A stretch of 64,000 nucleotides of DNA from a virus. Its lineage: Duplodnaviria > Heunggongvirae > Uroviricota > Caudoviricetes. Made by a program: the position numbers and the translations under genes. Below the pieces are notes generated by a model, which was given only the letters and a program-made list of their open reading frames with translations, was not told where the DNA came from and did not search any database. Shown piece after piece: positions 3 through 63,805 of the stretch (within the stretch, counting starts at the first letter, position 1; every line of letters begins with the position of its first letter). The stretch lies in the IMG/VR virus record IMGVR_UViG_3300024269_000002; one strand, 5' to 3'.

Positions 3-677
3 CGTGACACTTGTTGGAAATATCAAAATAATCCATCTGCTGAATGTAAAACTCAGAATGTTTATTGCCCACGATTATTCCGTATGAACTATCTTTATGA
101 TGAATCACTCATGTCGATGAAGCAGCGACAACATGTTGCTCTTAGAATTGACGAGGATGGAACAGATGGCGAAGCATTTGGCAGATTGAAGGCAATTGAA
201 ACAAACATCGAGAAATTTGTTGGTGGTGGAAACAATCTTTATCTACACTCAACAACTTGTGGTAACGGAAAAACAGCATGGGCTCTTAGATTGTTACAGA
301 GTTACATTGGGAAGATCTGGTTCAAATCTGATCTCAAATGTAAAGTGCTGTTTATCAATGTGCCCAGATTTATTCTTGCGTTGAAAGATAGTATTAGTGA
401 GACTAGTGACTATATTCAGCATATCAAGAAGAATATTTTTACAGCTGATCTTGTTGTGTTTGATGAGGTTGGTACAAAGGCTCTTACAACGTGGGAGCAC
501 GAACAGATTCTAAATCTGATCAATACACGAATTGACATGAACAAGTCAAATATTTACACATCAAACCTCACTGGGTTAGAACTTAGAGACAAAGTTGGAG
601 ACAGACTGTATAGTAGAATTATGAATCTATCTGTAGACATTGAACTATTCGGTAGTGATAAGAGAGGAGTAGTGTAA
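3..677 (+). CDS. DnaC/IstB-like AAA+ helicase loader (5'-truncated; frame open upstream of ATG 84)
   Basis: Walker A CGNGKT, Walker B LVVFDE, IYTSN and DRLYSRI motifs; upstream in-frame Cys-rich segment; sits before helicase. Confidence 0.85.
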   Translation, partial: RDTCWKYQNNPSAECKTQNVYCPRLFRMNYLYDESLMSMKQRQHVALRIDEDGTDGEAFGRLKAIETNIEKFVGGGNNLYLHSTTCGNGKTAWALRLLQSYIGKIWFKSDLKCKVLFINVPRFILALKDSISETSDYIQHIKKNIFTADLVVFDEVGTKALTTWEHEQILNLINTRIDMNKSNIYTSNLTGLELRDKVGDRLYSRIMNLSVDIELFGSDKRGVV

Positions 678-681
678 AATA

Positions 682-1959
682 ATGGTACAGTTACAACTTC
701 TCAATTATCTTTTACAGACTGGTGATGCATCACTACTCAAAGTAAACAATGTAGATGATACATTCTTTTCTGATTATACTCAAGAATATGCTTTTATTCG
801 AGACCATATGAGCGTGTATGGTCAGGTACCGGATCGACTAACATTTGCAAGTAAGTTTGCGGATTTCGACTGGATTGAAGTTCGTGAAAATCCGAACTAT
901 CTGATTGATGAACTTTATCGAGATAGGAACAAACGAACTCTTGCTCGTGTATTCAACGGTGTCAGAGACAGAATCAACGCAGGTGATATTGAAGGAGCTA
1001 TGGCTCTGTTTACAACATCATCTCAAGATGTACTATCTTCAACACACATTGACTGTGTTGACATCATCAGAGATACAAGTCGTTATGATGCATATCTGGA
1101 AAGAACTCAAGACTTTTCAAAGTACTATGTTAAAACTGGATTCTCTGAGTTAGATGAGCTTGTAGGCGGCTGGGACCGTCTTGAAGAGTATGCAACAATT
1201 GTTGCTCGTCCTGGTGTTGGTAAGTCATGGGTCTTGTTAAGATGTGCAATGGCTGCTGCAGAACAAGGGTTGAGAGCAGGACTTTATTCTGGTGAGATGA
1301 GTGAAGTCAAAGTTGGCTACAGATTTGATACACTGGCTGGACACATTTCAAATAGTGGAATCATTCATGGCAATGCAGAGCTGATGAACAGCTACAAAGC
1401 ATTTCTTGATTCTATGGAAAATAGATTTTCTGGATGTATCAAAGTAATCACTCCTAAGATGATCAAGCATTCTGCTACTGTTATGGATCTTGAGGCATTT
1501 ATCGAGAAAGAGAATCTTGATATTCTGTTTATTGATCAGCACTCTTTGATGGAAGATCAACGTAAGGCTAAGGACCCTGTAACAAGAGCAGCAAACATCT
1601 CAAAGGATTTGAAAAATCTGCAAGTATTGAAAAGAATTCCAATCATTACAGTTTCTCAGCAGAATAGAAACATGGTTGACGAAAATTCAGTAATCGATGT
1701 TTCTCATATTGCTCAAGCTGACAGAATTGGTCAGGACAGTACAATTGTTATCTTTCTTGAGCAGAAAAATCATGTGCTGACTATGCATCTTGCAAAGTCT
1801 CGTGATAATGGTGCGGGTGTGAAGTTGAAATATGCGATTGATCTTGATAAAGGTGTTTTTCAGTTCATTCCAAATGAAGACGATGCCCTTGACGGATCTT
1901 CTTGCGACGAATTGCGACAGGAATTTGAACCAGCGTATGAGGGAGGAGCTCCTTTCTAA
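682..1959 (+). CDS. dnaB: DnaB-like replicative helicase
   Basis: ARPGVGKS Walker A, SGEM, ILFID, SQQNR and IGQDS SF4 motifs. Confidence 0.92.
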   Translation: MVQLQLLNYLLQTGDASLLKVNNVDDTFFSDYTQEYAFIRDHMSVYGQVPDRLTFASKFADFDWIEVRENPNYLIDELYRDRNKRTLARVFNGVRDRINAGDIEGAMALFTTSSQDVLSSTHIDCVDIIRDTSRYDAYLERTQDFSKYYVKTGFSELDELVGGWDRLEEYATIVARPGVGKSWVLLRCAMAAAEQGLRAGLYSGEMSEVKVGYRFDTLAGHISNSGIIHGNAELMNSYKAFLDSMENRFSGCIKVITPKMIKHSATVMDLEAFIEKENLDILFIDQHSLMEDQRKAKDPVTRAANISKDLKNLQVLKRIPIITVSQQNRNMVDENSVIDVSHIAQADRIGQDSTIVIFLEQKNHVLTMHLAKSRDNGAGVKLKYAIDLDKGVFQFIPNEDDALDGSSCDELRQEFEPAYEGGAPF

Positions 1960-2909
1960 TGCACATCAAGATTCGGAATAAGATGATAACTGAACCGATT
2001 GAGTATATTCTTTATCAAGTTCAGAAAGAATTAAGCAACGGTAAGTTAAGAGAGATTACAAAACCGAAGGGTGACAATATTTTGATCAGTTGTCCTTGTC
2101 ACAAAGGTGGTCAGGAAAGGCATGCAAGTTGTAATGTTCTTATCAACCCTGAGGGTGAGCTTGAGGCAGGATTTGCTCACTGTTGGTCTTGTGGTTACAA
2201 TGCATCTTTTCCGCAGTTAGTTGCAGATCTATTTGATCAACCGTTACAGTTTGGGGAAGAGTGGCTTGTTGAGCGATATGGAGATATTCTTGTTCAACAA
2301 GAAGAAATACTGCCAGAAATAATTGTTGATCAACCGAAAGTGGTTACAAAGCAGTTTCTAGATGAAAGTTGTTTAACATCTTTTGATTACTATCATCCGT
2401 ATATGTGGCAGCGAAAATTAACTCAAGAAGTTGTTGATAGATTTCGTGTTGGATATGATCCTCAACGAGATGCAATAACATTTCCGGTATATGACGAAAA
2501 GCATCGACTGGTTATGGTCACAGCAAGAAGCACAAGAACCAAGCGATTCTGGATACCTGAAAATGTAGACAAACCTGTTTATCTGTTGTATGATCTACTT
2601 GAGCGTGGTTCAGATACTGCATTTGTTTGTGAGAGTCAGATAAATACTTTGTATCTTAGAACATTCAACTATCCGTCAATCGGACTATTTGGAACAGGCA
2701 GTGAGAAACAGTATGAAACTTTACGAAAATGCGGAATAAGAAATTACGTCTTATTCTTTGACGGCGATGAGGCGGGATGGAAAGGCGCTATGAGATTCCG
2801 TAAAAATATGCCGAAAGATGTGTTCATAACTGAAGTCAGACTTCCGGCAGGAAAAGATGTGAATGATCTGACAAAGGAAGAGATAGATTACTACTATAGT
2901 TTAAGTTGA
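1959..2909 (+). CDS. dnaG: DNA primase (Zn finger + TOPRIM)
   Basis: CPCH...CWSC zinc finger, ITFPV, FFDGDEAG TOPRIM, GKDVND. Confidence 0.9.
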   Translation: MHIKIRNKMITEPIEYILYQVQKELSNGKLREITKPKGDNILISCPCHKGGQERHASCNVLINPEGELEAGFAHCWSCGYNASFPQLVADLFDQPLQFGEEWLVERYGDILVQQEEILPEIIVDQPKVVTKQFLDESCLTSFDYYHPYMWQRKLTQEVVDRFRVGYDPQRDAITFPVYDEKHRLVMVTARSTRTKRFWIPENVDKPVYLLYDLLERGSDTAFVCESQINTLYLRTFNYPSIGLFGTGSEKQYETLRKCGIRNYVLFFDGDEAGWKGAMRFRKNMPKDVFITEVRLPAGKDVNDLTKEEIDYYYSLS

Positions 2910-2934
2910 TTTCTTTGATCAGTCACAATATAAT
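2904..2934 (+). promoter_or_regulatory. Phage promoter P1 (AG-TTGATT-N17-TATAAT)
   Basis: TTGATT 2906-2911, TATAAT 2929-2934; -35 overlaps primase stop codon. Confidence 0.85.
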
Positions 2935-2969
2935 ATGTATGTATTCAATCAAACAAGGAGATGAATGAT

Positions 2970-3914
2970 ATGGCAAAAGTTAATTTTAACAATGTAGATG
3001 AGATTGAAGCTCAGACTCAGGGTAACGGTGGTCCCGGTTCTGATGTTGGCTTTTTCACTCTGCGAAATGACAACGATGAGGCTGTCGTAAGATTTATGTG
3101 CGACAGTACTGATGACTTCGAGATTCTGACTGTTCATGATGTTCAGATTGGTTCCAAGTATCGTAAGGTCAACTGCATTCGTGACCCTCGTGAGCCTCTC
3201 GACAACTGTCCTCTGTGCAAGAGCGGCGCAAGAATCAACAATAGATTCTTCATCAAGCTGCTTCAGTACGATAAAGTGACTGATCCTGCAACTGGCATGG
3301 TTCGTGTTGTGCCTAAGGCAATGATGTGGGAGCGTTCAACTGCTTATGCGAAGACTCTGAAGTCTTACCTGGACAACTACGGTCCTCTGTCAGACATTAT
3401 CTGCAAGATTATTCGTCATGGCAAGGCAGGCGATATGCAGACTACTTACGAGATTGTCCCTAATCTGAGTAAGGCTGTTTACAAGGATGAGATCTATGTG
3501 AAGGACACCTCCCTGTTTGGTGACTTCGAAGCTTTTGGCACTGTTGTCATGGACCGCACTGCTGATGAGATGAACTACTTCTTGGCAAGCGGAGAGTTCC
3601 CTGCTCGTCAGCGTCAGGAGGGCTCCGCACAGCCTGCTGAAGCGGCTCCGGTAGCTCCTGCAGCACCTGCAATGGCTCCTCAGTATGCACCTCAGCCTGC
3701 AGCTTATGCTGCTCCTCAGCAGTATGCACCTCCTGTTGCACCTGCTCCGGCTGCTCCGATGCCTCAGACTTATGCAGCCCCTCCTGTAGAGGCTCAGCCT
3801 CAGTATGCTCCTGCCCCTACTTATGCTCCTCCTGCAGCTCCCGCTCCAGCTCAGCGGATGCCTTGGGATGCTTCTGCTGCACCGGCTGGTTTTGAAAGAC
3901 CTCGTCGTTATTGA
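2970..3914 (+). CDS. gp32-like single-stranded DNA-binding protein with Pro/Ala/Gln/Tyr-rich tail
   Basis: FF.L...VVRF, H...C...CPLC Zn site, IIRHGK.GDMQTTY; between primase and polymerase; AAGGAG favours start 2970. Confidence 0.75.
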   Translation: MAKVNFNNVDEIEAQTQGNGGPGSDVGFFTLRNDNDEAVVRFMCDSTDDFEILTVHDVQIGSKYRKVNCIRDPREPLDNCPLCKSGARINNRFFIKLLQYDKVTDPATGMVRVVPKAMMWERSTAYAKTLKSYLDNYGPLSDIICKIIRHGKAGDMQTTYEIVPNLSKAVYKDEIYVKDTSLFGDFEAFGTVVMDRTADEMNYFLASGEFPARQRQEGSAQPAEAAPVAPAAPAMAPQYAPQPAAYAAPQQYAPPVAPAPAAPMPQTYAAPPVEAQPQYAPAPTYAPPAAPAPAQRMPWDASAAPAGFERPRRY

Positions 3915-3937
3915 TCAAAGTAGTGAGGTAAGAGAAT

Positions 3938-6430
3938 ATGTTTGATTCTCTCTGGGGCGAGGACTTTGTCGTCGCTCCTCCTCCAAAACAGCAAAAGAAA
4001 GTCATTGATAAAGTAACTAAACCAAAGAAGGTAACAACGACAACTGAGAAAGTCGCAAAATCTTCTTCGGGAAAAGTAACTACTGCTGAAAAGTTATCAA
4101 TGATTGAGGCGGAAGTTTACAGAATTCTTGGTGTGTACAAAGACCAAACAGTTGTGTTAAGAACAGAAGCAGAATTGGCTGAGTACATAGACAGGGCAAT
4201 CATCAATTCTGTAATTGCGGTTGATACCGAAACAAACAACAGTCTTGTTCCCCTTACATGTAAAATCATGGGACTTTGTTTGTATACACCTGGAATGAAG
4301 AACGCATACATTCCGGTTAATCATGAGAACATCTATACAGGTGAACTTCTACCTGATCAATTAACTGAGCAACAGATTCACGATCAGCTTGCTAGATTAG
4401 AAGATGTTCAAATCATCATGCACAACGGTAAGTTCGACTTTGAGGTTATCAAGTGCACTTGTGGTAATGAACTGGAGATCTTCTGGGATACAATGATTGC
4501 TTCTCGAATTCTTGATGAGAATGAACGAGCAAATCTGAAACAGCAGTATATCAGTAAGATTGATCCATCTATTGAGAAGTATTCTATTGAGAAGCTGTTT
4601 GAAGGAATTGAGTACGCCAAAGTATCTCCTGAACTATTTGCACTGTATGCTGCAACTGATGCGTTCATGACTTACAAGTTGTACGAATGGCAGAAACAGC
4701 AGTTCGCACAGCCTGGCTACGAGCGGATGTACAATCTGTTCAAGAACATTGAAATGCCGATTGTTCGTGTTTGTGCAGATATGGAACTTGCTGGCATTGA
4801 GATTGACACTGAATACGGTAAGCGTTTAAGTGCAAAATATCATAAAAAGCTTGATGCTATTGACAAACAGATTGAAGAAACATTGCATCAATATGATCAG
4901 GTAATTGCCGAATGGAGAAAAACTCCAGAAGCAAATCATAGAGAAAAGAAAGTAAACAAGAAGGGTGAGGAGACTTGGACGAAATCCAAGAACGAACAGC
5001 TATCCGATCCGATGAGCGTAACAAGTCCTACTCAGTTAGCAATTTTCTTCTATGATGTGCTGAAACATCCTGTAGTAGACAAGAAGAGTCCTCGAGGAAC
5101 TGGTGAAGACATCTTGTTGAAGATGGATTATCCCATTGTTAAACTAATCTTGGAAAAGCGTGGCTTAGAGAAGATTATTGGTACATATGTTGATAAACTT
5201 CCTCAATGTGTGATCCCGGAGACTGGAAGACTTCATGCTCATTTCAATCAGATTGGTGCGGACACTGGCAGATTCAGTTCAAGTGATCCCAATTTGCAGA
5301 ATATTCCGTCGCACTTGAAAGACATTCGTATGCTGTTTAGAGCAGCTGAAGGTAAAGTTCTTGTTGGTAGTGACTTTTCTCAGCAGGAGCCTCGTTTGCT
5401 GTGCAGTATGGCAAACGATGAAGCAATGATCGGTGCATATAGAAACAAACAGGATCTTTATGCAACAATTGCTACAAAAGTGTATAACAACGGTTACTGG
5501 GATAACATGGAGCATTATGAGGACGGCTCCCCAAATCCTGAAGGTAAGAAGCGTCGCTCCAACTGTAAGAGTATCTTGTTAGGTCTAATGTATGGTCGAG
5601 GAGCTGCATCAATTGCTGATCAGATTAATCAGCCTATTCAAGAAGCTCAAAAGATCATTGATACATTCTTCAAAGGATATCCTGCAGTTAAGCAGTGGAT
5701 TGATAAAACTCAATCTGATGCAAAGATTAACGGATATGTTGAAGACCATTGGGGCAGACGACGTAGACTTCCGGATATTCTTAGACCTCCTGTAGAGGTT
5801 CGATACACAGATAAGAATCGTGTTGTCGTTCCTTCTGACTTCAATCCTTTACTTGGATCAACTGGTAAATATACTTCAAGTACACGATCTGATATTGATA
5901 TCTACCGCGAAAAAGCTCTTGCAGCTAAGGGTAGAAAAGAGATTGAAAAGTTGAAGACAGAAGCTCTTGCAAAGGGTATTGAGATTCATGAGAACGGTGG
6001 TTTCATTGCTCAGGCTGAGCGTCAGTGTGTCAATGCTCGTATTCAGGGCGGTGCAGCAACAATCACGAAGATCGCAATGAATAAGGTTCATTCTGATCCG
6101 GAATTAAGACGAATGGGCTTCAAGATGTTGATCTGTGTACATGATGAATTGATTGGTGAATGTCCCGAAGAATTTGCAGAAGCTTGTGGCGAGCGACTGT
6201 CTCAGGTAATGATTGATTCCGTTGCAGAAGATGTAGCTTGTCCTATGAAGTGTGACGCAACAATAACTCGTTACTGGTACGAGGATGAAGTTGCTGCCAA
6301 ACTGCAAGAAAAGTTTGCTGATAAGGTGAAGAAGGGTGAAGATCCTGAAGCAGTTAAACAGCAATTCTTGGCCGACAACGAGGAATTAACATACGAACAG
6401 CTTGAAGGACTTCTATCAATGAAGTTATGA
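3938..6430 (+). CDS. polA: Family A DNA polymerase with 3'-5' exonuclease
   Basis: Exo motifs AVDTET, HNGKFD, YAATDA; TGRFSSSDPNLQNIP, DFSQQEPR, KSILLGLMYG, VHDE. Confidence 0.95.
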   Translation: MFDSLWGEDFVVAPPPKQQKKVIDKVTKPKKVTTTTEKVAKSSSGKVTTAEKLSMIEAEVYRILGVYKDQTVVLRTEAELAEYIDRAIINSVIAVDTETNNSLVPLTCKIMGLCLYTPGMKNAYIPVNHENIYTGELLPDQLTEQQIHDQLARLEDVQIIMHNGKFDFEVIKCTCGNELEIFWDTMIASRILDENERANLKQQYISKIDPSIEKYSIEKLFEGIEYAKVSPELFALYAATDAFMTYKLYEWQKQQFAQPGYERMYNLFKNIEMPIVRVCADMELAGIEIDTEYGKRLSAKYHKKLDAIDKQIEETLHQYDQVIAEWRKTPEANHREKKVNKKGEETWTKSKNEQLSDPMSVTSPTQLAIFFYDVLKHPVVDKKSPRGTGEDILLKMDYPIVKLILEKRGLEKIIGTYVDKLPQCVIPETGRLHAHFNQIGADTGRFSSSDPNLQNIPSHLKDIRMLFRAAEGKVLVGSDFSQQEPRLLCSMANDEAMIGAYRNKQDLYATIATKVYNNGYWDNMEHYEDGSPNPEGKKRRSNCKSILLGLMYGRGAASIADQINQPIQEAQKIIDTFFKGYPAVKQWIDKTQSDAKINGYVEDHWGRRRRLPDILRPPVEVRYTDKNRVVVPSDFNPLLGSTGKYTSSTRSDIDIYREKALAAKGRKEIEKLKTEALAKGIEIHENGGFIAQAERQCVNARIQGGAATITKIAMNKVHSDPELRRMGFKMLICVHDELIGECPEEFAEACGERLSQVMIDSVAEDVACPMKCDATITRYWYEDEVAAKLQEKFADKVKKGEDPEAVKQQFLADNEELTYEQLEGLLSMKL

Positions 6431-6453
6431 TACCTGTTGTATAAATATATAAA

Positions 6454-6517
6454 TAAGGGCGGTGTTCGATCCTACAATCCCTCGCCCTTAACAAAAATAC
6501 AAATTCAAACTAAGGAG
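6454..6517 (+). ncRNA. Candidate variant preQ1-I-like riboswitch (translational)
   Basis: Stem TAAGGGCG/CGCCCTTA, loop with GTTCG...ATCCC, A-rich tail ending AAACTAAGGAG; loop TCCT can pair with SD AGGA; directly upstream of a YhhQ-family gene. Confidence 0.6.
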
Positions 6518-6524
6518 AACTTAA

Positions 6525-7274
6525 ATGTTTACAAAGATTAAGAACTGGATAAGATCTGAATTGTCTGACTATTCAGTACTACTTCGGAGCGTCCCATCAA
6601 CTGTAGTTTGTCTGTTCGTTGTGAGTGTGGTTATGATGAACTTACTTGCAAATAAGACATTGATTCAGCTTGACTGGATTGCGTTAGATGGTGGACTTCT
6701 TGTGTCTTGGTTAGCTTTTATGAGCATGGACATCATTACAAAGCACTTTGGTCCAAAAGCATCTACAAAGGTTTCGATTTTCGCAAGTGCAATAAATCTA
6801 CTTGTGTGTTTCATTTACTGGGTTGCAAGTATCATTCCTTCTACAGCTGATGATTACACAGCTTTCAATTCCATTATTGGTGGAACTTGGTTTATTCTGC
6901 TTGGTAGTACAATTGCATTTATTCTTTCTGCATTCATTAACAATACAATTAACTGGAGTATTGGAACTCTGTTCAAGAAGAATCCTACTGGAAAGGTAGC
7001 GTATTTTACAAGAACATATGTTTCTACTGCTCTTGGGCAATTCTGTGATAATCTGATTTTTGCAGTGATTGTATTTATGGGATTTGCTCCAATCTACTGG
7101 AACGGCTTCCACTGGACATTTATTCAGTGTGTCATGTGTTCTCTAACCGGTGCAGTTGTTGAGCTTTTATTCCAAGTTGTTTTCAGTCCAATTGCATGGA
7201 ATATTTCTCAGAACTGGAAAAAGATGAATGTTGGAAAAGATTACTTAGATAAGCATCCTGAGGTTGTTGAATGA
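6525..7274 (+). CDS. yhhQ: YhhQ/VUT-family queuosine-precursor (preQ0/preQ1) transporter
   Basis: About 6 TM helices; NLLANK, DIITKHFG, R.YVSTALGQFCDNLIF motifs typical of COG1738. Confidence 0.82.
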   Translation: MFTKIKNWIRSELSDYSVLLRSVPSTVVCLFVVSVVMMNLLANKTLIQLDWIALDGGLLVSWLAFMSMDIITKHFGPKASTKVSIFASAINLLVCFIYWVASIIPSTADDYTAFNSIIGGTWFILLGSTIAFILSAFINNTINWSIGTLFKKNPTGKVAYFTRTYVSTALGQFCDNLIFAVIVFMGFAPIYWNGFHWTFIQCVMCSLTGAVVELLFQVVFSPIAWNISQNWKKMNVGKDYLDKHPEVVE

Positions 7275-7534
7275 TTGATTACTTGATGAGTCTCAATAAT
7301 CCAGTTTCGATGATTGGATTGGTTGCAAGCATCATTGTTCTTGTGTCAATGTGTTTCAATCCGTCAACAAAGAGAGGAAACATCATGATGAGATCAGTTA
7401 ACCTGATCGGTAGTATTGTTTCTGTTATCTATGGTGTTCTTCTCGGACCACTAGGTGCAGGAATGATCTTACTCAATGGTGTGCTTGTATTTGTAAATGC
7501 GTACTATCTAATTGTAACACTTAAGCACAAATGA
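7271..7534 (+). CDS. Small 3-TM membrane protein (YgjV-like)
   Basis: IGLVASIIVLVS...R.VNLIGS...IYG...LN...VN.YYL pattern; ATGA-coupled to yhhQ. Confidence 0.6.
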   Translation: MIDYLMSLNNPVSMIGLVASIIVLVSMCFNPSTKRGNIMMRSVNLIGSIVSVIYGVLLGPLGAGMILLNGVLVFVNAYYLIVTLKHK

Positions 7535-7540
7535 TGTAAC

Positions 7541-7595
7541 AGGCGCAACTATTTGAGGTATAATTTATCTCAGTAAGATAGTTGCGCCTTTGTTT
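7541..7595 (+). terminator. Long-loop hairpin / terminator
   Basis: AGGCGCAACTAT...ATAGTTGCGCCT 12-bp inverted repeat followed by TTGTTT. Confidence 0.6.
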
Positions 7596-7687
7596 AACTA
7601 CAATTCTTCCTAAATCTTGGAAGAAACAACAACTTACAAAGAATATCTGTTTGCTGATTCAAGATAAGATCAACTTGTAAAAATTCT

Positions 7688-7718
7688 AGTTGATTATTCA
7701 ATACAGTAAACTTATAAT
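7688..7718 (+). promoter_or_regulatory. Phage promoter P2
   Basis: TTGATT 7690-7695, N17, TATAAT 7713-7718. Confidence 0.85.
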
Positions 7719-7761
7719 ATGAATGTAAACAAACTATAAAGAGGAGGAAACTGTACGCAAG

Positions 7762-8970
7762 ATGAGCTGTCAAGTTTATTACTACAGTGGTGCATATGAT
7801 CCACAGCTGAAGAGAGATCTGAATATTGATCAGCTGTTTTCAGTGTATCACGAAAAGAAACTGATTACTGAGACAATCAAGTACAAGCGGGAGCATCCTG
7901 AGTATACAGCACGGATCATGTGTGATAGTGGTGCTTTTACTCATTTCCAGCAAATGAAGAAAAAGGGTCTAACTCTTACTGATGAAGATATCATCGAGTA
8001 TACAAACACATATCTGGAGTTCCTGAACGAGTGGGGCGACGGTTTGGATTGTTTCGTTGGTGTCGACTCTGTTCCTGATCCTGAAAATGTTGATCCTACA
8101 TATGGTGACAAAACCTGGGAAAACTATCTGTATATGTGGGAAAGACTGAAGCCTGAAATTAGACACAAGTTAATTCCTGTATTCCACTATGGTGAGGAGT
8201 GGAAGCATCTTGTAAGATTCTTGGAGTATGTTCATCCTGATGGTAGCAAGTTGGACTACATTGGTCTGGCTATCTCCTTGGAAGGAACCCGTAAAGTAAG
8301 AATCAACTGGGGTCAGGATGCAATGAAGATTATTGCTAACAGCAGTAATCCGAATGTTAAGACTCACGCTTTCGGAGTCGGCGTTAAGTCTGTTCTGGAG
8401 CACATTGATGTGTATTCCACAGACGCAACTTCATACTTGAAGAGAGCTGCATACGGAATGATCAGCATTGACGATAAAACTATCTATGTCAGTGATATTC
8501 AGAAAGAACTGCTTCGTGGAAATCACTATTCGGAGAAGTCAGCGGCTTACCAGAAGTCAGTTGAAGATATCATTCATGAGAGAGGGTTCACTCTGAATCC
8601 GTATGAGCTGAATTACACCTTTATGGATGCAGATACAGTCAAATTTACACTTGATGGTGAAGAGTATCATGTTCATAAGGACAACGATACGAATGTCTTG
8701 TTGATTCATGGTGACGAAATTGATACACTTAAACTGAGTGTTGCGGAAGAGGCTCCTGAAGGTGCTGATAAGTTTTTTGGAACTTGGGAAGCAAAGCGCA
8801 AGAGTCTTGTGTTTGATGGTCTTGGAACTGTTCAGTTTGATCCTGGTAATGCACTTGCAACAAACTGTTATGCAAGAGCAGTGTTCAATATTCAGGATAC
8901 TGAAAACTGGATGCAGGCAATTAGAACAATGCCTCCTGCAACAATCAAGACCAAAGTTGAACTGTGGTAA
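7762..8970 (+). CDS. TGT-fold DpdA-like base-exchange transglycosylase
   Basis: CDSGAFT, VGVD, LIPVFHYGE, YIGLA, HAFG and STDATSY motifs of phage TGT-like proteins; next to yhhQ. Confidence 0.72.
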   Translation: MSCQVYYYSGAYDPQLKRDLNIDQLFSVYHEKKLITETIKYKREHPEYTARIMCDSGAFTHFQQMKKKGLTLTDEDIIEYTNTYLEFLNEWGDGLDCFVGVDSVPDPENVDPTYGDKTWENYLYMWERLKPEIRHKLIPVFHYGEEWKHLVRFLEYVHPDGSKLDYIGLAISLEGTRKVRINWGQDAMKIIANSSNPNVKTHAFGVGVKSVLEHIDVYSTDATSYLKRAAYGMISIDDKTIYVSDIQKELLRGNHYSEKSAAYQKSVEDIIHERGFTLNPYELNYTFMDADTVKFTLDGEEYHVHKDNDTNVLLIHGDEIDTLKLSVAEEAPEGADKFFGTWEAKRKSLVFDGLGTVQFDPGNALATNCYARAVFNIQDTENWMQAIRTMPPATIKTKVELW

Positions 8971-8980
8971 GAGGTGGAAT

Positions 8981-9688
8981 ATGAAAGTATTGATAACTGG
9001 AACTAGCTGTGGCGTCGGTCGAGCAGCAGCTATTAAGTTCCTTGATGAAGGCTATGTGGTTTGTGGACTTGATTGGAAAGAGTCCACAATCGTGCATTCA
9101 AATTACAAGCATTATCAGTGCGATGTTGGTAACATTGATGAACTCCCTGTAATTCGTGGCATCAGTTACATTGTTAACAATGCTGGAATTGTTACTCCCA
9201 AAGCAGATGCTATTCGAGTAAATCAGATCGGATATATCAATGTAATTGAGACTTATGGATATGATCCTGAACTCAAGAGCATCGTTAACATTGGTTCTAC
9301 AGCGTCCATCAAAGGATATGATAATCTTGAGTATTGTTCTTCTCAGGGAGCTCGAGACGCAATTACAAAGTGGGCTGCAAATAATTTCGGTAAAGATGAT
9401 CGACATGTTATTGTTAATGGTTTGAACCTTGACGGCATTGTTGCTGCGGATCCTGAAAAGGGTATTCAAGGCACATCTCTTGAGCCTGAACTTTATGCTC
9501 GTCCTGAGTTGATGGATGAAATTGCTAACTTGAGCATTCTTAAGAAGTTGGCAACAGTAGAAGAAATCGCAGAATGGATTTTCTTCCTTCTTGTTAAGAA
9601 TACTGTTATGACAGGTCAGATTCTCAACATTGATGGTGAGTTGATGGGAGCATTCAAGTTTATTCCATATCCTGGCTGGAATAGCTAA
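8981..9688 (+). CDS. Short-chain dehydrogenase/reductase with atypical YxxxQ
   Basis: TGTSCGVG, NNAG, NIGS, YCSSQ, MTGQILNIDG; start 8981 after GAGGTGG. Confidence 0.88.
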   Translation: MKVLITGTSCGVGRAAAIKFLDEGYVVCGLDWKESTIVHSNYKHYQCDVGNIDELPVIRGISYIVNNAGIVTPKADAIRVNQIGYINVIETYGYDPELKSIVNIGSTASIKGYDNLEYCSSQGARDAITKWAANNFGKDDRHVIVNGLNLDGIVAADPEKGIQGTSLEPELYARPELMDEIANLSILKKLATVEEIAEWIFFLLVKNTVMTGQILNIDGELMGAFKFIPYPGWNS

Positions 9689-9702
9689 TCAGGAGGAGCA
9701 AT

Positions 9703-10587
9703 ATGGCAAAAATTGTTGGTCTCATACCTTGCTTGATGTTGGAAAACAATCGAGCAGCAAACAATGAGGCAATTGAACACAACTACAAGCATCTCAATCT
9801 GGATGCAGTCGTAATCTACGATCAGGCATTTGCAGAGTCAGACTATGATCCTCGATATCAGTATGTTGGACATCAACCTGATCGAGTTGGTTTCACGAAT
9901 GCACGTAACGGTCTTCTTGAGTGGTTCTACAACTCTGATTATGATTATGCTCTATGGTTGGATGCAAACGAAAAGGTGTCTACTCCTACAATCAATGACA
10001 CTGTAACTGTTATTGAAGCAATCAAAGCTGATCAACTCAACAAGATTGATGTTATTTTTGCAACTCTGGGTTTATGGGTTTCTCAGGACCGTATTGTTGC
10101 GAAGCAACGTGAAGATTATATGACTCATGTTCAGCTGATTCCTGCTCTCAATAACAAGAGCTACAACTGGATGCATGGACTGATTATGAAGAACTTCAAG
10201 AAGTACTACAATCAGCCTGTGTTCATTGACTCTCGTTGCGATGTTAAGCTTGGAACACCTGAGGATGTTTATTTTGCTCGTCTTGTTAGACGCTATTTCA
10301 ATGCATATGTTGCTCCAACTGTTGTTATAACGAAACCCAGTTCAAACACCTCGACTCATGCAGGTGACGGAAAAGGTAAGTATGTTTATCCGCCTGTTAA
10401 GTTTGAGGAGGTTGATCAGTACATTCTTGAATCTGTTGAGCAGAATGATATCAAACAGTGTAACATTCAGTGGTTCAAAGATCCTGTTAGTATCCCTAGA
10501 CAAGATTACATGAAGGATAAAGTAACTCCTTACAAATCTCGAAAGAAAGAATCACCCTCTCCTGTGACTAAGGTTGGTCTTTTCTAA
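9703..10587 (+). CDS. GT-A fold (GT2-like) glycosyltransferase
   Basis: GF.NARN.LL, DYALWLDAN (DxD variant), EDVYF. Confidence 0.6.
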   Translation: MAKIVGLIPCLMLENNRAANNEAIEHNYKHLNLDAVVIYDQAFAESDYDPRYQYVGHQPDRVGFTNARNGLLEWFYNSDYDYALWLDANEKVSTPTINDTVTVIEAIKADQLNKIDVIFATLGLWVSQDRIVAKQREDYMTHVQLIPALNNKSYNWMHGLIMKNFKKYYNQPVFIDSRCDVKLGTPEDVYFARLVRRYFNAYVAPTVVITKPSSNTSTHAGDGKGKYVYPPVKFEEVDQYILESVEQNDIKQCNIQWFKDPVSIPRQDYMKDKVTPYKSRKKESPSPVTKVGLF

Positions 10588-10617
10588 GTTGAATGAGACC
10601 AACTATCAATATATAAT
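10587..10617 (+). promoter_or_regulatory. Phage promoter P3
   Basis: TTGAAT 10589-10594, N17, TATAAT 10612-10617. Confidence 0.85.
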
Positions 10618-10652
10618 GTTTATGTACAAATTCTGAAAGGAAGAATTATAGA

Positions 10653-11780
10653 ATGATTTGTCGAATTGAAGAACTCCAGAATTCCTGTAGTAAGATTCTT
10701 GCTGCAGTGGATTCAAACGCACTGTCCGTACTTACTGAAACTCTGCAGCTGAAGACTGAAGGCAAGGATCTGTTTATCAGTGTCACGAACCGTGAGTATT
10801 TTGCTCAGGTCCGAATTCCTATGAACGAGGAAATTGAGTTCCATGCAACCGTCAATGCAAATCTGTTCCTGAAGTTGGTATCTCAAATCACAACTGATAC
10901 CATTGAGATGAACATTGTTGACTCTGCACTTGTTCTCAAGGGCAATGGTACCTACAAACTGCCTCTGATTTTTGATGGTGATGCTCTGTTGGAGTTGCCT
11001 GAAATCAGCATTGATAACGCTACTGTGAATTTTGAGATTGACAGTGCTGTTCTGTTGAGTATGCTCCAGTTTAACAGTAAGCAGCTGTCTCAGGGTATTA
11101 TCTCCAAGCCGATTCAGAAGCTCTATTACATGGATGAGGCAGGTGCTGTGACATTCACTACCGGTGCGTGTGTTAACAGTTTTACTCTGCAGCAGCCTGT
11201 TAAAATCTTACTGAATGATCGTCTTGTTAAACTGTTCAAGCTGTTCAAAGGTGAGAAGGTTCAGTTCACTCTTGGTTATGATGCATTGAGCAACGATATC
11301 ATCCAGACCAAGGTTAGATTTGCAACCAGTGACATCATTATTACTGCAATCTTGTCTTGCGATGATACAATGTTGAGATCTTTCCCTGTCAACGCAGTTC
11401 GTAGCCGTGCAAATGCTGCTTATCCTTACTCTGTTAACATCAATCGCGAAGCTCTGATTCAGACCATCAGCCGTTTGCTTCTGTTTAGCTCTGCTAACAG
11501 TGCGAAGGATGTTATCAAGCCCTACAGTGTCTTCGAGTTCAAGAAGGACAGTGTTGTAGTTTATGACGCTAAGAAAGAGAACAAGGAAGAGGTGTACTAC
11601 ACCAATACTACTTGTGATATGGAAAATAACTATAGTGCTCTGTTGGATCTGAATGATCTGAAGCAGACTCTTGAGACTTGTACTGAACAGTATGTCACTA
11701 TTCATTTCGGTGATGGTCAGGCTGTTGTTCTTTCCAGAGGCAATGTCAAGAATGTTATTCCTGAGTGTATTCTGAACTAA
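10653..11780 (+). CDS. dnaN: DNA sliding clamp (beta-clamp-like)
   Basis: 375 aa with beta-clamp-like pattern (L.ISVTNRE; NREALIQTISR; VTIHFG); clamp loader genes nearby. Confidence 0.75.
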   Translation: MICRIEELQNSCSKILAAVDSNALSVLTETLQLKTEGKDLFISVTNREYFAQVRIPMNEEIEFHATVNANLFLKLVSQITTDTIEMNIVDSALVLKGNGTYKLPLIFDGDALLELPEISIDNATVNFEIDSAVLLSMLQFNSKQLSQGIISKPIQKLYYMDEAGAVTFTTGACVNSFTLQQPVKILLNDRLVKLFKLFKGEKVQFTLGYDALSNDIIQTKVRFATSDIIITAILSCDDTMLRSFPVNAVRSRANAAYPYSVNINREALIQTISRLLLFSSANSAKDVIKPYSVFEFKKDSVVVYDAKKENKEEVYYTNTTCDMENNYSALLDLNDLKQTLETCTEQYVTIHFGDGQAVVLSRGNVKNVIPECILN

Positions 11781-12251
11781 TTGGCAATTTCTCGAGGTAA
11801 ACAATTCGAGGGAAAATTTCGAGATGACTTCAAGAAGCTGACAGGTAGTTTTGTTTATAGACTACCTGATCAGACTTCAGGAAATCTCGGATCTCGAAAC
11901 TTGTGTGACTTTATCTGTTATGTTTACCCGAATCTTTATATTCTGGAAGTGAAGAGCGTGGGTGGTAATACATTCCCAATCACAAACTTCACACAGTATC
12001 AGACAATGCTCCAGTACAGGGGAGCTCCTGGTGTGAAGATGGGTGTTGTTATCTGGTATACAGAAAAAGACACTGTTATATATGTTCCACTAAAAACAAT
12101 TGAAAAGATGAAACAGGACGGAAAGAAATCTGTTAATATTCGGACTATTGATGATGATGGCTATGAGTATGTGTCAATTCCATCTGTTAAGAAACGAGTG
12201 TTCTTAGATTCTGATTATTCTGTTTTGTTAGATTTACCGGAAGGATGGTGA
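11781..12251 (+). CDS. RecU-like Holliday junction resolvase
   Basis: SRGKQFE, CDF, LEVKS, Q motif (PD-(D/E)xK). Confidence 0.75.
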   Translation: MAISRGKQFEGKFRDDFKKLTGSFVYRLPDQTSGNLGSRNLCDFICYVYPNLYILEVKSVGGNTFPITNFTQYQTMLQYRGAPGVKMGVVIWYTEKDTVIYVPLKTIEKMKQDGKKSVNIRTIDDDGYEYVSIPSVKKRVFLDSDYSVLLDLPEGW

Positions 12252-12252
12252 A

Positions 12253-12735
12253 ATGAAACAAAATGTTTCTATTGCTCTTGACCAAGTTGATATGACTTAC
12301 GGAGAGCTGATTGATGTTGCAAACTCTTTGAACGAAGAGTTTACTGGTGACCTCAACAGAATGATGGAAAGTGCTTACAACGATGTCGAGAAGCTATCAA
12401 ATGATGCAATTCGTGATTTGATTTTACGGTTGTCTCTTAGATCTTATTCTTTCAGCGAGATCAAGGAGAAATCAATCTTCAAAGCTGCGCTTGCTGAAAC
12501 TCTTCGTAAAGAAGCATATGCACGAAACTACAATGAGACTAGCGGCACAGGTGGTGTGAAGGAAAACACTGCAATTATCAATACTTCAGCTGAAATTCTT
12601 GCTGATGAGATCTATTCCTTGGCAGCATCTATGTTCAAGACTAAACTCGACGAAATTCATCGAGTTGTTGACTCTCTCAAGACTGTTCTGATGTCTAGAC
12701 TGTCTGAAGCAAAGTTAACTAATGTTGATGGTTAA
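12253..12735 (+). CDS. Helical hypothetical protein (possible UvsY-like recombination mediator)
   Basis: All-helical 160 aa directly before RecA; function inferred from position only. Confidence 0.4.
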   Translation: MKQNVSIALDQVDMTYGELIDVANSLNEEFTGDLNRMMESAYNDVEKLSNDAIRDLILRLSLRSYSFSEIKEKSIFKAALAETLRKEAYARNYNETSGTGGVKENTAIINTSAEILADEIYSLAASMFKTKLDEIHRVVDSLKTVLMSRLSEAKLTNVDG

Positions 12736-12751
12736 ATGACAGGAGAATGAA

Positions 12752-13915
12752 ATGAGTTCAGTTTTAGAAATCGCAAAGAAGTTGAATCGAGCTTACAAGA
12801 ATGAAAAGCTCGCGTTAACAGCAGATGTTATGCCCTCTTATGAGCGACTTGCTTGTAATGACCTGGGTGCAGATTTTCCGCTGTATGGTGGATTACCTTA
12901 TGGTAGAATTGTAACTGTGTCTGGTAAGGAACACAGTGGCAAGACTACAGGAGCTTGTACATATCTTGCAGCTTATCAGCGAGCAAATCCTGATAAGACT
13001 TGTGTATTTGTTGACGTGGAGCACGCTCTTGATAAGGAATTCCAAGCAGCAATGACGGGTCTGGATCTTACAAAGCTGTTGTATGTTAATCCGGAAGGAA
13101 TGTCAGGTGAACAGATCATGGACGCTATTCTAGAGTTCCAGGACTCAGATGATATCGGTATGATTGTTCTTGACTCTATTGCGGCTCTTGTGTCTTCAAG
13201 AGACTACGACACAGATATTGAAAAAGATAACGGTATGTCAGGTGGTATTGCAAAGCCTCTTGCAAAGTTTATTCGTAAGATGCTAGATCCCCTTGCTGCT
13301 AAGAAGAATATTTTGCTGTTGATCAATCAGGTTCGTACTGTAGGAACAACGTTCACTGGTGCTCCTATCTATGATGAGCCGGGTGGTCATGCTCCCAAGT
13401 ACTATGCATCTGTTAAACTAAGATTCGGTACAAGGACTTTCACGCAGGGTGATAAAGTTGACGCTCGTGATGGTGAGAATGCCGACGGTTTCCGTTTAAC
13501 ATTTGCAACTACTAAGAATAAGACTGCGTCCACTCAACGTGGTGGTGGTTTCATGACTTTCCGTTATGACACTGGTCTTGACTGGTCTTATGACTTGCTG
13601 GAAGTTGCAATCAAGTACGACTTCATTAGTCGTCCCAGTTCAATGAGTTACATTGTTATGAATCTGGAAACCGGTGAAGCATATACAGATTCTGATGGCA
13701 ATGTTTTGAAGTTTGTTGGTAAGCAGAAACTTCGTGACTACTTGAATGAGCATGTGGAGTTCCAGAAGGAATATCTGGCTATGCTAAACAGACACATTTC
13801 TGCAACTGCAAACAAGTATGGCAGCTTGCTTGATGCTAGAGAACTTGCAGCAATTACTGCTGAGGAAGCATCTTGTGAGAAGGAAGGCGATAGTAAGCCT
13901 CCAGTAGAGGAGTAA
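12752..13915 (+). CDS. recA: RecA/UvsX recombinase
   Basis: GGLPYGRI, GKEHSGKTT, FVDVEHALD, IVLDSIAAL, INQVR, PGG.APKYYAS. Confidence 0.93.
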   Translation: MSSVLEIAKKLNRAYKNEKLALTADVMPSYERLACNDLGADFPLYGGLPYGRIVTVSGKEHSGKTTGACTYLAAYQRANPDKTCVFVDVEHALDKEFQAAMTGLDLTKLLYVNPEGMSGEQIMDAILEFQDSDDIGMIVLDSIAALVSSRDYDTDIEKDNGMSGGIAKPLAKFIRKMLDPLAAKKNILLLINQVRTVGTTFTGAPIYDEPGGHAPKYYASVKLRFGTRTFTQGDKVDARDGENADGFRLTFATTKNKTASTQRGGGFMTFRYDTGLDWSYDLLEVAIKYDFISRPSSMSYIVMNLETGEAYTDSDGNVLKFVGKQKLRDYLNEHVEFQKEYLAMLNRHISATANKYGSLLDARELAAITAEEASCEKEGDSKPPVEE

Positions 13916-27994: not shown

Positions 27995-28651
27995 ATGGAT
28001 AAACATGTAAAGAATATTATCACCGACGAAGCAGCTCTTAGCGAGTGGAGTGTTGAAATTGACACACGTAAGGAGGGTAAGCTCCTTCAGGAAATCATCC
28101 TTGCTTTGAAGGCAACTATGAAAGCTAATGATCTGATTTCCCTTACAGCTCCTCAGATTGGTTATAATCGTCGTGTTATGTGTATGAGATTCGGCAAGAA
28201 TGATTATAGAACATTTATCAATCCTCTTGTTGAAAATAACACGAATTTTCAGTTTGCAAGAGAAACTTGTTCTAGTATTCCAGGTAAAACTTTTGTTATG
28301 CCCAGATTTAACAACGTGAAGCTGTTCTTTACCACCCCTCTCGGTAAAGTAGAGTCTACCAAGTTGTCTGGAATGTCTGCATGGAAGTTTCAGCACTGTT
28401 TAGATCATTTGAATGGTATGTTGTCTTCAGACATTGGTCTTGAAATTGATGATATGTTTGATAATGCAACTGATGAGGAAAGAGCTGAAGTTCTTAAAAT
28501 GTATGCAGAATCTCTGGATGTTCGCCAGAAAGATCTAGAGGCAGAAATTGCTGAGGATAAGAATCTTTCTGATATCAACAATGCTGCTAAGTTTATTGCT
28601 AGTGTCAAGTCAGGTGAAACTATTCTCGATAACTCAGAGTTGAAATCATGA
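27995..28651 (+). CDS. Peptide deformylase homologue with degenerate active site
   Basis: LTAPQIG, FINP, ETCSSIPG, FQHCLDHLNG (HEXXH changed to HCXXH). Confidence 0.8.
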   Translation: MDKHVKNIITDEAALSEWSVEIDTRKEGKLLQEIILALKATMKANDLISLTAPQIGYNRRVMCMRFGKNDYRTFINPLVENNTNFQFARETCSSIPGKTFVMPRFNNVKLFFTTPLGKVESTKLSGMSAWKFQHCLDHLNGMLSSDIGLEIDDMFDNATDEERAEVLKMYAESLDVRQKDLEAEIAEDKNLSDINNAAKFIASVKSGETILDNSELKS

Positions 28652-60268: not shown

Positions 60269-61096
60269 ATGGCTTTCAAAGATCCTCTTGGCGATAGAAT
60301 GAAAGGTAACTACGAGAACCGCGCCAAGATGTATTTAACTCGTAGAACTCCCGTTATCATCCGTATTGATGGTAAAGCATTCCACACATTCACGCGTGGA
60401 TTCTGCAGACCTTATGACAGAGTATTCCACAACTCAATGAATGCAACTCTTGAATATCTTTGCAAGAATATTCAGGGTTGTAAATTTGGCTGTACTCAAT
60501 CTGATGAAATCACACTTGTTCTCACTGATTATGATAAACTAACTACCGACGGTTGGTTTAATTACAGTGTACAGAAGATGTGCTCCATCGCAGCAAGTAT
60601 GGCAACATTGATCTTCAATAGGACATTCTTGAATGAGTGTTCTAACTGGTGTGATACCAGTGAGTTCTTCCGTATGGACGAAACAGAACGAGACGGTGTC
60701 TCTACAAAAGAATTCAATGAGCTGTTTCAAGCATATAGTAGAGCTGCAGAAAGAGGCGCAATGTTTGATGCAAGATGCTTCAACATTCCTGAGGATGAAG
60801 TTGCAAACTGTATCATCTGGAGACAGAATGATGCAACCCGTAATGCAATTCAGATGTTGGGACAGACATATTTCAGTCACAAGGAACTGGATTCAAAGTC
60901 TCAGAGCGATATTCAGGATATGTTGATGGAGGTGCACCAGATCAACTTCAACGATATGCCTGTTGAATTCAAGAGAGGCATCTGCTGCTATCGTGATGAA
61001 GATGGCAAGTGGATCTTGGACAAGGATTGTCCTATCATAAGTCAAGATCGTGACTATGTTGAAAGACATGTGTTCACGAAAGAATACAAAGATTAA
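60269..61096 (+). CDS. thg1: Thg1-like tRNA-His guanylyltransferase / 3'-5' polymerase
   Basis: IRIDGKAFH.FT, QSDEI, FDAR, WRQ.DA.RN, FKRG. Confidence 0.92.
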   Translation: MAFKDPLGDRMKGNYENRAKMYLTRRTPVIIRIDGKAFHTFTRGFCRPYDRVFHNSMNATLEYLCKNIQGCKFGCTQSDEITLVLTDYDKLTTDGWFNYSVQKMCSIAASMATLIFNRTFLNECSNWCDTSEFFRMDETERDGVSTKEFNELFQAYSRAAERGAMFDARCFNIPEDEVANCIIWRQNDATRNAIQMLGQTYFSHKELDSKSQSDIQDMLMEVHQINFNDMPVEFKRGICCYRDEDGKWILDKDCPIISQDRDYVERHVFTKEYKD

Positions 61097-62626: not shown

Positions 62627-63805
62627 GTGACTGATATCAAAGTTGTTGTAGGTGCAAACTTTGGCGATGAGGGTAAGGGCTTGATGACGGATTATTTCTG
62701 CCATCAAGCTACTTCCAAGAATAAGAGCTGTATCGTTGTTATGAGTAACGGTGGCGCACAGCGAGGTCATACTGTTAATCTTCTAGACGGTAAGCGTCAT
62801 GTATTCAAGCACTTCGGAGCAGGAACGATGGTTGGTGCAGACACATATTGCCCTACAGAGTTCATCTTGAATCCTATGGAGTTTGTTCGCGAATATGAGG
62901 ACCTGCTACAACTGGGATATCGTCCTCACGTCTATGTCGAGTCGCTGTGTAGATGGACTACACCTTTCGACATGATCATAAATCAGATTGTTGAGGCAGT
63001 TCGAGAAGACAAAAAACATGGTAGTTGTGGTATGGGTATCTGGGAAACGGTTTACAGATATCAAACCAAACCAGTGTTCTGGACCATCTTCGAATTCAAT
63101 CAGTTGCCTCATCATAACAAAGTTGACTACCTCGAAAATATCAGAGATGTATATCTTCCTGCAAGACTGAAGGAACATGGTGTAACTGACATTCCTTCTG
63201 AATGGAAAGAAATCCTGGAATCTCCTATTCTGATTGATAACTATATCAATGATATCAAGCTGTTTGTTTCAGCTGTTACAAGAGTGACAAGACCTATCTT
63301 GAAGAACTATGATTCAGTTGTATTTGAGAACGGTCAAGGTTTGCTGTTGGATGGAAATTGTACATTCTATGGAGACAATACAACTCCGAGTAATACAGGA
63401 ATCATCAATGCATGTCGTAGAATCAATGCACAGTTTGATCAAGCAAACGTTGAATTCTGTTATGTCACCAGAACTTACATGACTCGTCACGGAGCTGGTA
63501 GATTTGTAACAGAATGTGACAAGAGCTTGATCAATGCTTCTATGGTTGATGAAACAAACGGTTGGAATGAATTTCAGGACAGTCTCCGATATGGTCAGCT
63601 CGATATCGGCAATCTGAAATGCCGAATTGAAAACAATGTGCTCAATGCACAAGATCTGAAATTCCAGTACAAGACAAGTGTTGCAGTTACACACACGAAT
63701 GAACATCAGCTGGACTATTCTCAGCTTCGTACAAAGATCATTGGAGATGTGTACACCTCTGATTCTAGAATCAGAGATTCTGTTAAGCTCTTCACAGAGT
63801 TTTAA
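62627..63805 (+). CDS. Divergent adenylosuccinate synthetase (PurA-like)
   Basis: GANFGDEGKG, GGAQRGHTV, GSCGMG, FENGQGLLLD, TPS.TG, YMTRHGAG. Confidence 0.85.
   Translation: MTDIKVVVGANFGDEGKGLMTDYFCHQATSKNKSCIVVMSNGGAQRGHTVNLLDGKRHVFKHFGAGTMVGADTYCPTEFILNPMEFVREYEDLLQLGYRPHVYVESLCRWTTPFDMIINQIVEAVREDKKHGSCGMGIWETVYRYQTKPVFWTIFEFNQLPHHNKVDYLENIRDVYLPARLKEHGVTDIPSEWKEILESPILIDNYINDIKLFVSAVTRVTRPILKNYDSVVFENGQGLLLDGNCTFYGDNTTPSNTGIINACRRINAQFDQANVEFCYVTRTYMTRHGAGRFVTECDKSLINASMVDETNGWNEFQDSLRYGQLDIGNLKCRIENNVLNAQDLKFQYKTSVAVTHTNEHQLDYSQLRTKIIGDVYTSDSRIRDSVKLFTEF

Follow-up and report, generated by a model that had tools for sequence, protein, structure and literature searches.

The question raised by this locus is what occupies the 94-nt gap between polA (ending at 6430) and the gene of a Vut_1/YhhQ transporter (starting at 6525) and, if it is the preQ1-I-like riboswitch proposed in a sequence-only reading, which ligand it would sense and to what end. 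The DNA analysed here (the window, 64,000 nt) is part of a virus record of 204,199 bases (G000, 92% complete by CheckV), and its block at 682–13915 codes for helicase, primase, SSB, PolA, clamp, RecU and RecA. DNA near-identical to the window is present in animal feces and bovine gut runs.

Architecture of the polA–transporter intergenic region

The element lies within the following arrangement of features (window positions; aptamer numbering as in PMC8752633):

6440..6455, + strand: AT-rich tandem TATAAATA boxes, a candidate promoter just 5′ of P1 (from sequence)
6454..6464, + strand: P1 5′ strand; G6464 corresponds to the pocket-floor G5, and U6463 faces C6481 unpaired
6465..6479, + strand: 15-nt loop with U6465/U6466 (U6, U7), C6467/G6468 (C8, G9), the anti-SD 6470–6474 and U6478/C6479 (U16 and the specificity base C17)
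6480..6490, + strand: P1 3′ strand; C6480 corresponds to C18
6491..6509, + strand: 19-nt A-rich linker L3, with AAA (A28–A30) at its 3′ end
6510..6517, + strand: CUAAGGAG, in which CUA (C31, U32, A33) overlaps the Shine-Dalgarno (SD) AGGAG; 3′ strand of pseudoknot P2
6525..7274, + strand: Vut_1/YhhQ (QPTR) queuosine-precursor transporter, 249 aa, the putative regulated gene (PF02592, E 4.6e-24)
7271..7534, + strand: 87-aa membrane protein of no clear family, its start overlapping the transporter stop (ATGA)
7541..7596, + strand: strong hairpin with a U-rich run, likely a terminator (z −5.6 for the hairpin 7541–7589)
7762..8970, + strand: TGT-fold, DpdA-like transglycosylase (phrog_887, E 1.8e-33; model pLDDT 90; top PDB matches all TGT)
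8981..9688, + strand: short-chain dehydrogenase (SDR), related to the SDR after yhhQ in riboswitch-led bacterial operons

The stem arms at 6454–6461/6483–6490 are as the sequence-only reading gave them. The stem runs further, through G6462·U6482 and the U6463×C6481 mismatch to G6464–C6480, so that the aptamer loop has 15 nt (6465–6479) and not the 21 nt first assigned to it. P1 is therefore 6454–6464/6480–6490, with 11 steps and a single U–C mismatch, and the deviations pointed out earlier, namely a longer stem, a U–C mismatch near the loop and a long A-rich linker (19 nt), are all present. The transporter ATG (6525–6527) lies 7 nt past the SD (6513–6517).

The fold z was −2.23 for 6450–6520 and only −1.20 for a wider segment of 111 nt. 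A descriptor combining pocket and stem, composed after the element had been seen, gave one match in the 204-kb genome, which is the element itself, and one in 25 Markov genomes. The element at 6454–6517 is real. Its 5′ flank (6440–6455) is largely invariant across the window and three related loci (L221, L089 and L090), and a sigma-70 scan stayed at chance level (8 versus 5.9 ± 2.6). Contigs from the RNA libraries X17 and X18, both from one study, span polA, leader and transporter and are uninformative on transcription, strand and start.

The binding pocket resembles that of type I preQ1-I aptamers

Type I aptamers are defined by the G5–C18 pair, U6, U7, U16, C17, A30, C31, the tail CUA and a C8–A12–U32 ceiling (PMC8752633, PMC11625349). 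Every one of these pocket bases can be found in the window: the closing pair is G6464–C6480, followed by U6465, U6466, U6478, C6479, A6509 and C6510, and the ceiling corresponds to C6467/A6474/U6511. Put in terms of position, a UU sits on top of the P1 5′ strand (6465–6466), the UC of the type I definition (PMC11625349) lies ahead of the P1 3′ strand (6478–6479), and A28–A30 followed by C31–U32–A33 (6507–6512) close the A-rich L3. The AC that marks types II and III before the P1 3′ strand is absent, its place at 6478–6479 being taken by UC. Among 24 related elements, U6 and U7 are each kept in 24, C8 in 22, U16 in 21, C17 in 23, the AAA in 23 and C31 in 21; the G5–C18 pair is present in 27/27 elements by construction, as it served as the anchor pair. 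The neighbouring genes also belong to queuosine synthesis or transport, with Vut_1 following the element here and queD-led operons or yhhQ following it in bacteria.

The closest solved counterpart is the type I aptamer of Carnobacterium antarcticum (PDB 7REX/8FB3; PMC8752633, PMC11625349; RF00522), with which the phage element shares G5–C18, U6, U7, C8, G9, U16, C17 and A28–A30, a C31–U32–A33 running into an AGGAG SD, a predicted H-type pseudoknot and a queuosine-pathway gene downstream. It differs in being phage-borne, in a predicted P2 that is longer and more canonical, and in its size: since the Can numbering (PMC8752633) implies a P1 of about 5 steps, a loop of 12 nt and a linker of about 8 nt, the phage RNA is longer in stem (11 steps with the mismatch), loop (15 nt) and L3 (19 nt), and the compact geometry of the solved member is not matched. 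The McCown 2014 type I alignment may permit longer loops, and may already include the bacterial form with a 15-nt loop.

Infernal searches with the Rfam PreQ1 models, which had been suggested as a check, recovered at most the tail. Rfam 15 gave no match on the window, either at the gathering score or at E ≤ 10, and RF00522 run alone scored nothing but the tail, with 10.3 bits where its cut-off is 39; nor did RF00522 match on further sets of 15 and 8 related loci. Because the element appears to work like type I, yet satisfies neither RF00522 nor the compact geometry, we assign it as a phage-borne, elongated variant of the known preQ1-I riboswitch, with ligand binding predicted.

Compensatory changes in P1 and the register of P2

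Across 27 elements, 142 of the 162 cells in P1 steps 2–7 are paired, compared with 77 ± 5 in 2000 shuffles and 46–67 when slid. Since the elements were chosen by a stem-seeking descriptor, so that pairing is partly there by construction, it is the exchanges rather than the paired percentage that carry weight. Two-sided exchanges among GC, CG, AU and UA were seen at P1 steps 3–6, and in a MAFFT alignment of nine translational forms both sides change in 6 of the 16 pairs. Thus P1 covaries among the homologous leaders, a comparison that the earlier reading had named among the checks of its proposal. Another MAFFT alignment (A3) was discarded, as the two bacterial forms were mis-registered in it. 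At P1 step 2, a pyrimidine–C mismatch is found in 5/27 elements, all of them long forms in phage context.

The length of P1 rises with that of L3 (rho 0.78, n = 13 lineages, with P1 hand-trimmed and kinship uncorrected), as would be expected if the linker follows the P1 minor groove. The entries for L139, L256, L257 and L008 were hand-corrected or dropped in the P1, pocket and linker tallies.

The sequence-only reading had paired loop UCCU with AGGA of the SD. In that register the SD would indeed be covered; the homologues favour pairing one base upstream, in the register of the solved aptamer (65/95 cells paired versus 50/95; the remaining registers gave 39/95, 42/95 and 32/76). These P2 tallies comprise 19 elements, since the five of the 24 whose loops are of other types were set aside, and in the nine-row alignment the gap is small (73% versus 68%). 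In the favoured register the A12–U32 step is seen as AU, CG, UA and GC. For the window itself, the SD would be masked in either register, and equally if the two combine around a bulged A6513.

Retention of the element in related phages

Related transporters were examined at 162 loci, and a stem–UUCR–N8–AUC–stem–A-rich–AAACYARG arrangement lies upstream at 47 of them (some carriers are duplicates, and nine loci had <120 nt upstream). Most of these 47 carriers are from gut Bacillota and show a 6-pair form with a terminator-like hairpin behind it; a 7–8-pair form located on the SD was found in five metagenome contigs, and the long phage form in L089 and L090. In all 17 viral loci found with a DpdA-like alignment (about ten lineages), the vut gene lies between polA and dpdA, and a loose version of the motif precedes it in 15 of the 17, compared with 7 of the 194 ORF starts of G000, one of the seven being this element; the leaders of two of the 17 sister loci are degenerate. 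When viral sequences were searched with a sequence-only pattern, the sole long-stem match among 52 was also the sole one before a Vut_1 gene. A stem-anchored viral pattern gave one real match in 27, on the same contig as L221.

PolA and DpdA are 94% identical between the window and phage L221, and the transporter only 43% (L221:6370–7176 versus window 6525–7274); the DNA similarity ends at 6518, right past the SD, and is back from 7299. Within the aptamer 61/64 nt are identical, while fourfold polA sites agree at 109/215 (51%). Judged from these sequences, the transporter ORF is one that was exchanged in one lineage, with the switch kept. L090 (PolA 57%, transporter 74%) likewise carries the long form, in which compensatory changes are seen. 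A quick tree of Vut proteins, in which long branches meet, places L090 closest to the window and gives no donor or direction. Four DNA runs gave U6482C as the lone listed change in 6454–6517, converting the G·U to a G–C pair (run X8).

The same slot is also filled in other ways. A short contig of run X8 departs from the window at 6443, past the polA end, into another stem with the same UUCG start, and represents another allele of the slot. L223:6397–6460 and L262:5525–5590 hold type III-like elements (UU, AC, no C31), L008:4945–4985 a switch without C17, and L256 and L257 degenerate forms. A single-protein scan of viral contigs gave no relative, and an annotated phage collection only three weak Vut matches. 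Of two covariance models, R1, which was based on 12 leaders of Clostridial origin (93% identical), detected neither the element nor the translational forms, and its best window match (446–490, minus strand) has a broken stem and was taken as chance. R2 gave a 70-bit match on the window, by construction since it includes the window, found four other phage leaders weakly (E 0.001–0.05) and none of the short-stem bacterial ones.

Bacterial counterparts and the likely ligand

In 401 Bacillota genomes a search pattern matched 23 times, in 22 of the genomes, and its reversed control 17 times. A six-pair stem is present in 7 of the 23, five before queD and two before yhhQ-SDR (one of the seven is the centre genome), and none of the 23 is of the long form. 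In loci L292–L295 (genomes G281, G170, G206 and G254), a preQ1-I-like switch with a 15-nt loop leads queD-queE-(folE)-queC-queF operons and bears no Rfam annotation. QueD, QueE and FolE were confirmed on eight ORFs of three loci, QueC on 3/3 and QueF on 4/4 of the ORFs scanned; for L281, gene identities are by likeness only.

All 16 bacterial genomes with the switch before yhhQ, which are drafts, have TGT and QueA, none has a convincing QueC (best 37 bits), and a full QueF is found in one. These carriers would therefore need preQ1 from salvage. Because the switch leads both QueF-ending operons and importers in QueA-bearing salvagers, preQ1 fits as its ligand, and given the pocket shared with the bacterial form it is likely to be the ligand of the phage form as well.

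A predicted translational switch for base salvage

Taken together, the above observations make it quite probable that the element belongs to the class I preQ1 riboswitches as an elongated, type I-like form, predicted to bind preQ1 and to repress translation of the YhhQ importer by SD occlusion; the proposal of a preQ1-I-like translational switch before a YhhQ-type transporter is thus supported by the complete set of pocket bases, the overlapped SD and the conserved, covarying homologues. In the ligand-free state, just the lower nine P1 steps would be closed and the SD would be largely free. preQ1, predicted to bind as two stacked molecules, would allow G6464–C6480 to close over the U–C mismatch; the 19-nt A-rich linker, whose length scales with that of the stem, would return along the long P1; A6507–6509 and C6510 would complete the two ligand sites; and loop bases 6470–6474 would pair with 6511–6515(6), hiding AGGAG so that importer translation falls.

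The 87-aa gene is likely translationally coupled to the transporter and would fall together with it. Most sister phages encode such a protein, either ahead of the transporter or behind it, and it falls in a virus-dominated cluster of no family. The hairpin at 7541–7596 likely ends the transporter unit; a simple scan did not call it a terminator, and the stretch 7582–7662 is left uncovered by RNA-run contigs in 4/4 runs, which lends the terminator weak support. Because the hairpin (7541–7589) intervenes, control by the switch would be confined to the transporter and the 87-aa gene, leaving the dpdA-like gene unaffected. The transporter is assigned by PF02592, its TIGR00697 score being 39 bits, under the cut-off of 51.

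As for the purpose, no QueC, QueD, FolE or QueF was found in G000 (92% complete), and a gene with the TGT fold of phage DpdA lies nearby, as indicated by the phrog_887 match, the predicted model and the fold matches of ORF 7762–8970. The switch thus likely meters salvage for DNA modification: with no 7-deazaguanine of its own, the phage would import the base, the DpdA-like enzyme, its likely consumer, would put it into phage DNA, and the importer would be stopped once the pool is full. Insertion into DNA rather than tRNA is deduced here from gene context only. Precedents exist, as phages with DpdA only, some of them with YhhQ (group 3), may rely on uptake (PMC6884629), and DpdA2 of VH7D inserts preQ1 (10.1101/2023.04.13.536721).

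Among the points against the preQ1 riboswitch reading, the geometry departs from that of solved type I aptamers, the U–C mismatch directly beneath the floor pair could weaken the pocket, and the bacterial elements linked to queDECF are short-stemmed, unlike the phage form with its long stem. The sequence-only reading had suggested that ligand specificity may differ. Fold and SD occlusion would then be the same, with the long form now recognising a different 7-deazaguanine (preQ0, queuine or an SDR product) or a single ligand, and the lineage-specific Y–C mismatch under the floor, the longer loop and stem, the unexplained SDR after yhhQ in 37/38 loci and the fact that the accessible part of PMC11625349 documents no preference of type I aptamers between preQ1 and preQ0 could be taken that way. 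All alpha- and beta-site bases are unchanged, however, and the same loop type leads QueF-ending preQ1 biosynthesis operons, and we therefore regard such a shift as unlikely. A structure blind to any ligand, whether the remnant of a riboswitch, a hairpin that stabilises the 5′ end or an operator bound by a protein, might explain why Rfam misses the element and why some sister leaders are degenerate; it is very improbable, given that the unpaired pocket bases are conserved too, against near-saturated fourfold sites, and that the element was kept while the ORF behind it changed.

A separate question, concerning the purpose and not the switch, is whether preQ1 might be sensed for queuosine modification of host or phage tRNAs instead of DNA. 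G000 encodes tRNA-Asn(GUU) and tRNA-Tyr(GUA), the best fold matches of 7762–8970 are tRNA transglycosylases, and the bacterial carriers use import for TGT/QueA. On the other hand, the gene of the TGT-fold protein lies among genes for DNA replication (polA, clamp, RecU, RecA), its protein is only 13–17% identical to true TGTs and has no PF01702 match, and phages that combine YhhQ with DpdA only are already on record as a group (PMC6884629), which leaves tRNA modification with a small, if real, chance of being the purpose. A PDB sequence search with the TGT-like protein gave no match.

With DNA modification by imported preQ1 retained as the favoured reading, a bolder idea may be mentioned, for which we would claim little likelihood: the long-stem mismatch form could have evolved in phages as a preQ1-I subtype whose threshold was retuned or whose ligand changed (to queuine, for example), acting as a fixed control cassette behind which transporters are swapped, and an ancestral YhhQ–SDR pair could be an undescribed queuine-to-preQ1 route feeding phage DNA modification. 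The putative role of the SDR would be to oxidise the queuine diol, releasing preQ1. An SDR lies directly 3′ of yhhQ in 37/38 riboswitch-led loci with room for it (L019, L021, L034 and others), and these bacterial SDRs are 35–46% identical to the phage SDR at 8981–9688.

Relation to known riboswitches and phages

Control of yhhQ by SD occlusion is already known from the type III leader of E. coli (PDB 8FZA; PMC10622847), which the phage element also resembles in the UU atop P1, the variable linker and a predicted canonical P2. In type III, as described there, AC precedes the P1 3′ strand, the loop is short and a single ligand is bound, whereas the phage element has UC, C31 and a 15-nt loop. Like the DpdA-only phages (PMC6884629; 10.1101/2023.04.13.536721), the present phage has a transglycosylase without the biosynthesis genes and would draw on a host or imported precursor; riboswitch control is not described in the accessible parts of those two reports.

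Riboswitches are described as rare in phages in the accessible text of PMC9004378, which gives glutamine examples in marine phages including Melnitz. The present element is likewise a predicted metabolite riboswitch in a phage genome, and unlike those of Melnitz it is of another class and ligand and precedes a pathway-matched transporter across a phage clade. The remark that riboswitches are rarely reported in lytic phages therefore holds as to rarity in phages, while 'lytic' goes beyond what the absence of a tyrosine integrase, the sole integrase type sought in G000, would show. In the open-access literature, we found no description of a preQ1 riboswitch in phage genomes, nor of DpdA, phage and riboswitch together, and the accessible part of PMC11625349 makes no mention of phage. 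If the proposal is true, the phage would be regulating how much of the base that modifies its DNA is brought in by means of a metabolite-sensing RNA, a connection not found in that literature. The element indicates that the small preQ1-I fold can accommodate a stem of twice the length provided that the linker grows too. Gut Bacillota and their phages carry a whole set of preQ1-I switches that escape Rfam, some of them before queDECF operons.

Several other features of the genome may be recorded. Seventeen tRNAs were called at G000:186877–204157, including the queuosine-type anticodons Asn(GUU) and Tyr(GUA). Relative to expectation, the G000 dinucleotides GG/CC (0.78) and CG (0.65) are depleted, and ACGT, GGCC, CCGG and GATC are rarer than expected. 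Homologues of peptide deformylase, a Thg1-like tRNA-His guanylyltransferase and adenylosuccinate synthetase are encoded at window positions 27995–28651, 60269–61096 and 62627–63805, respectively.
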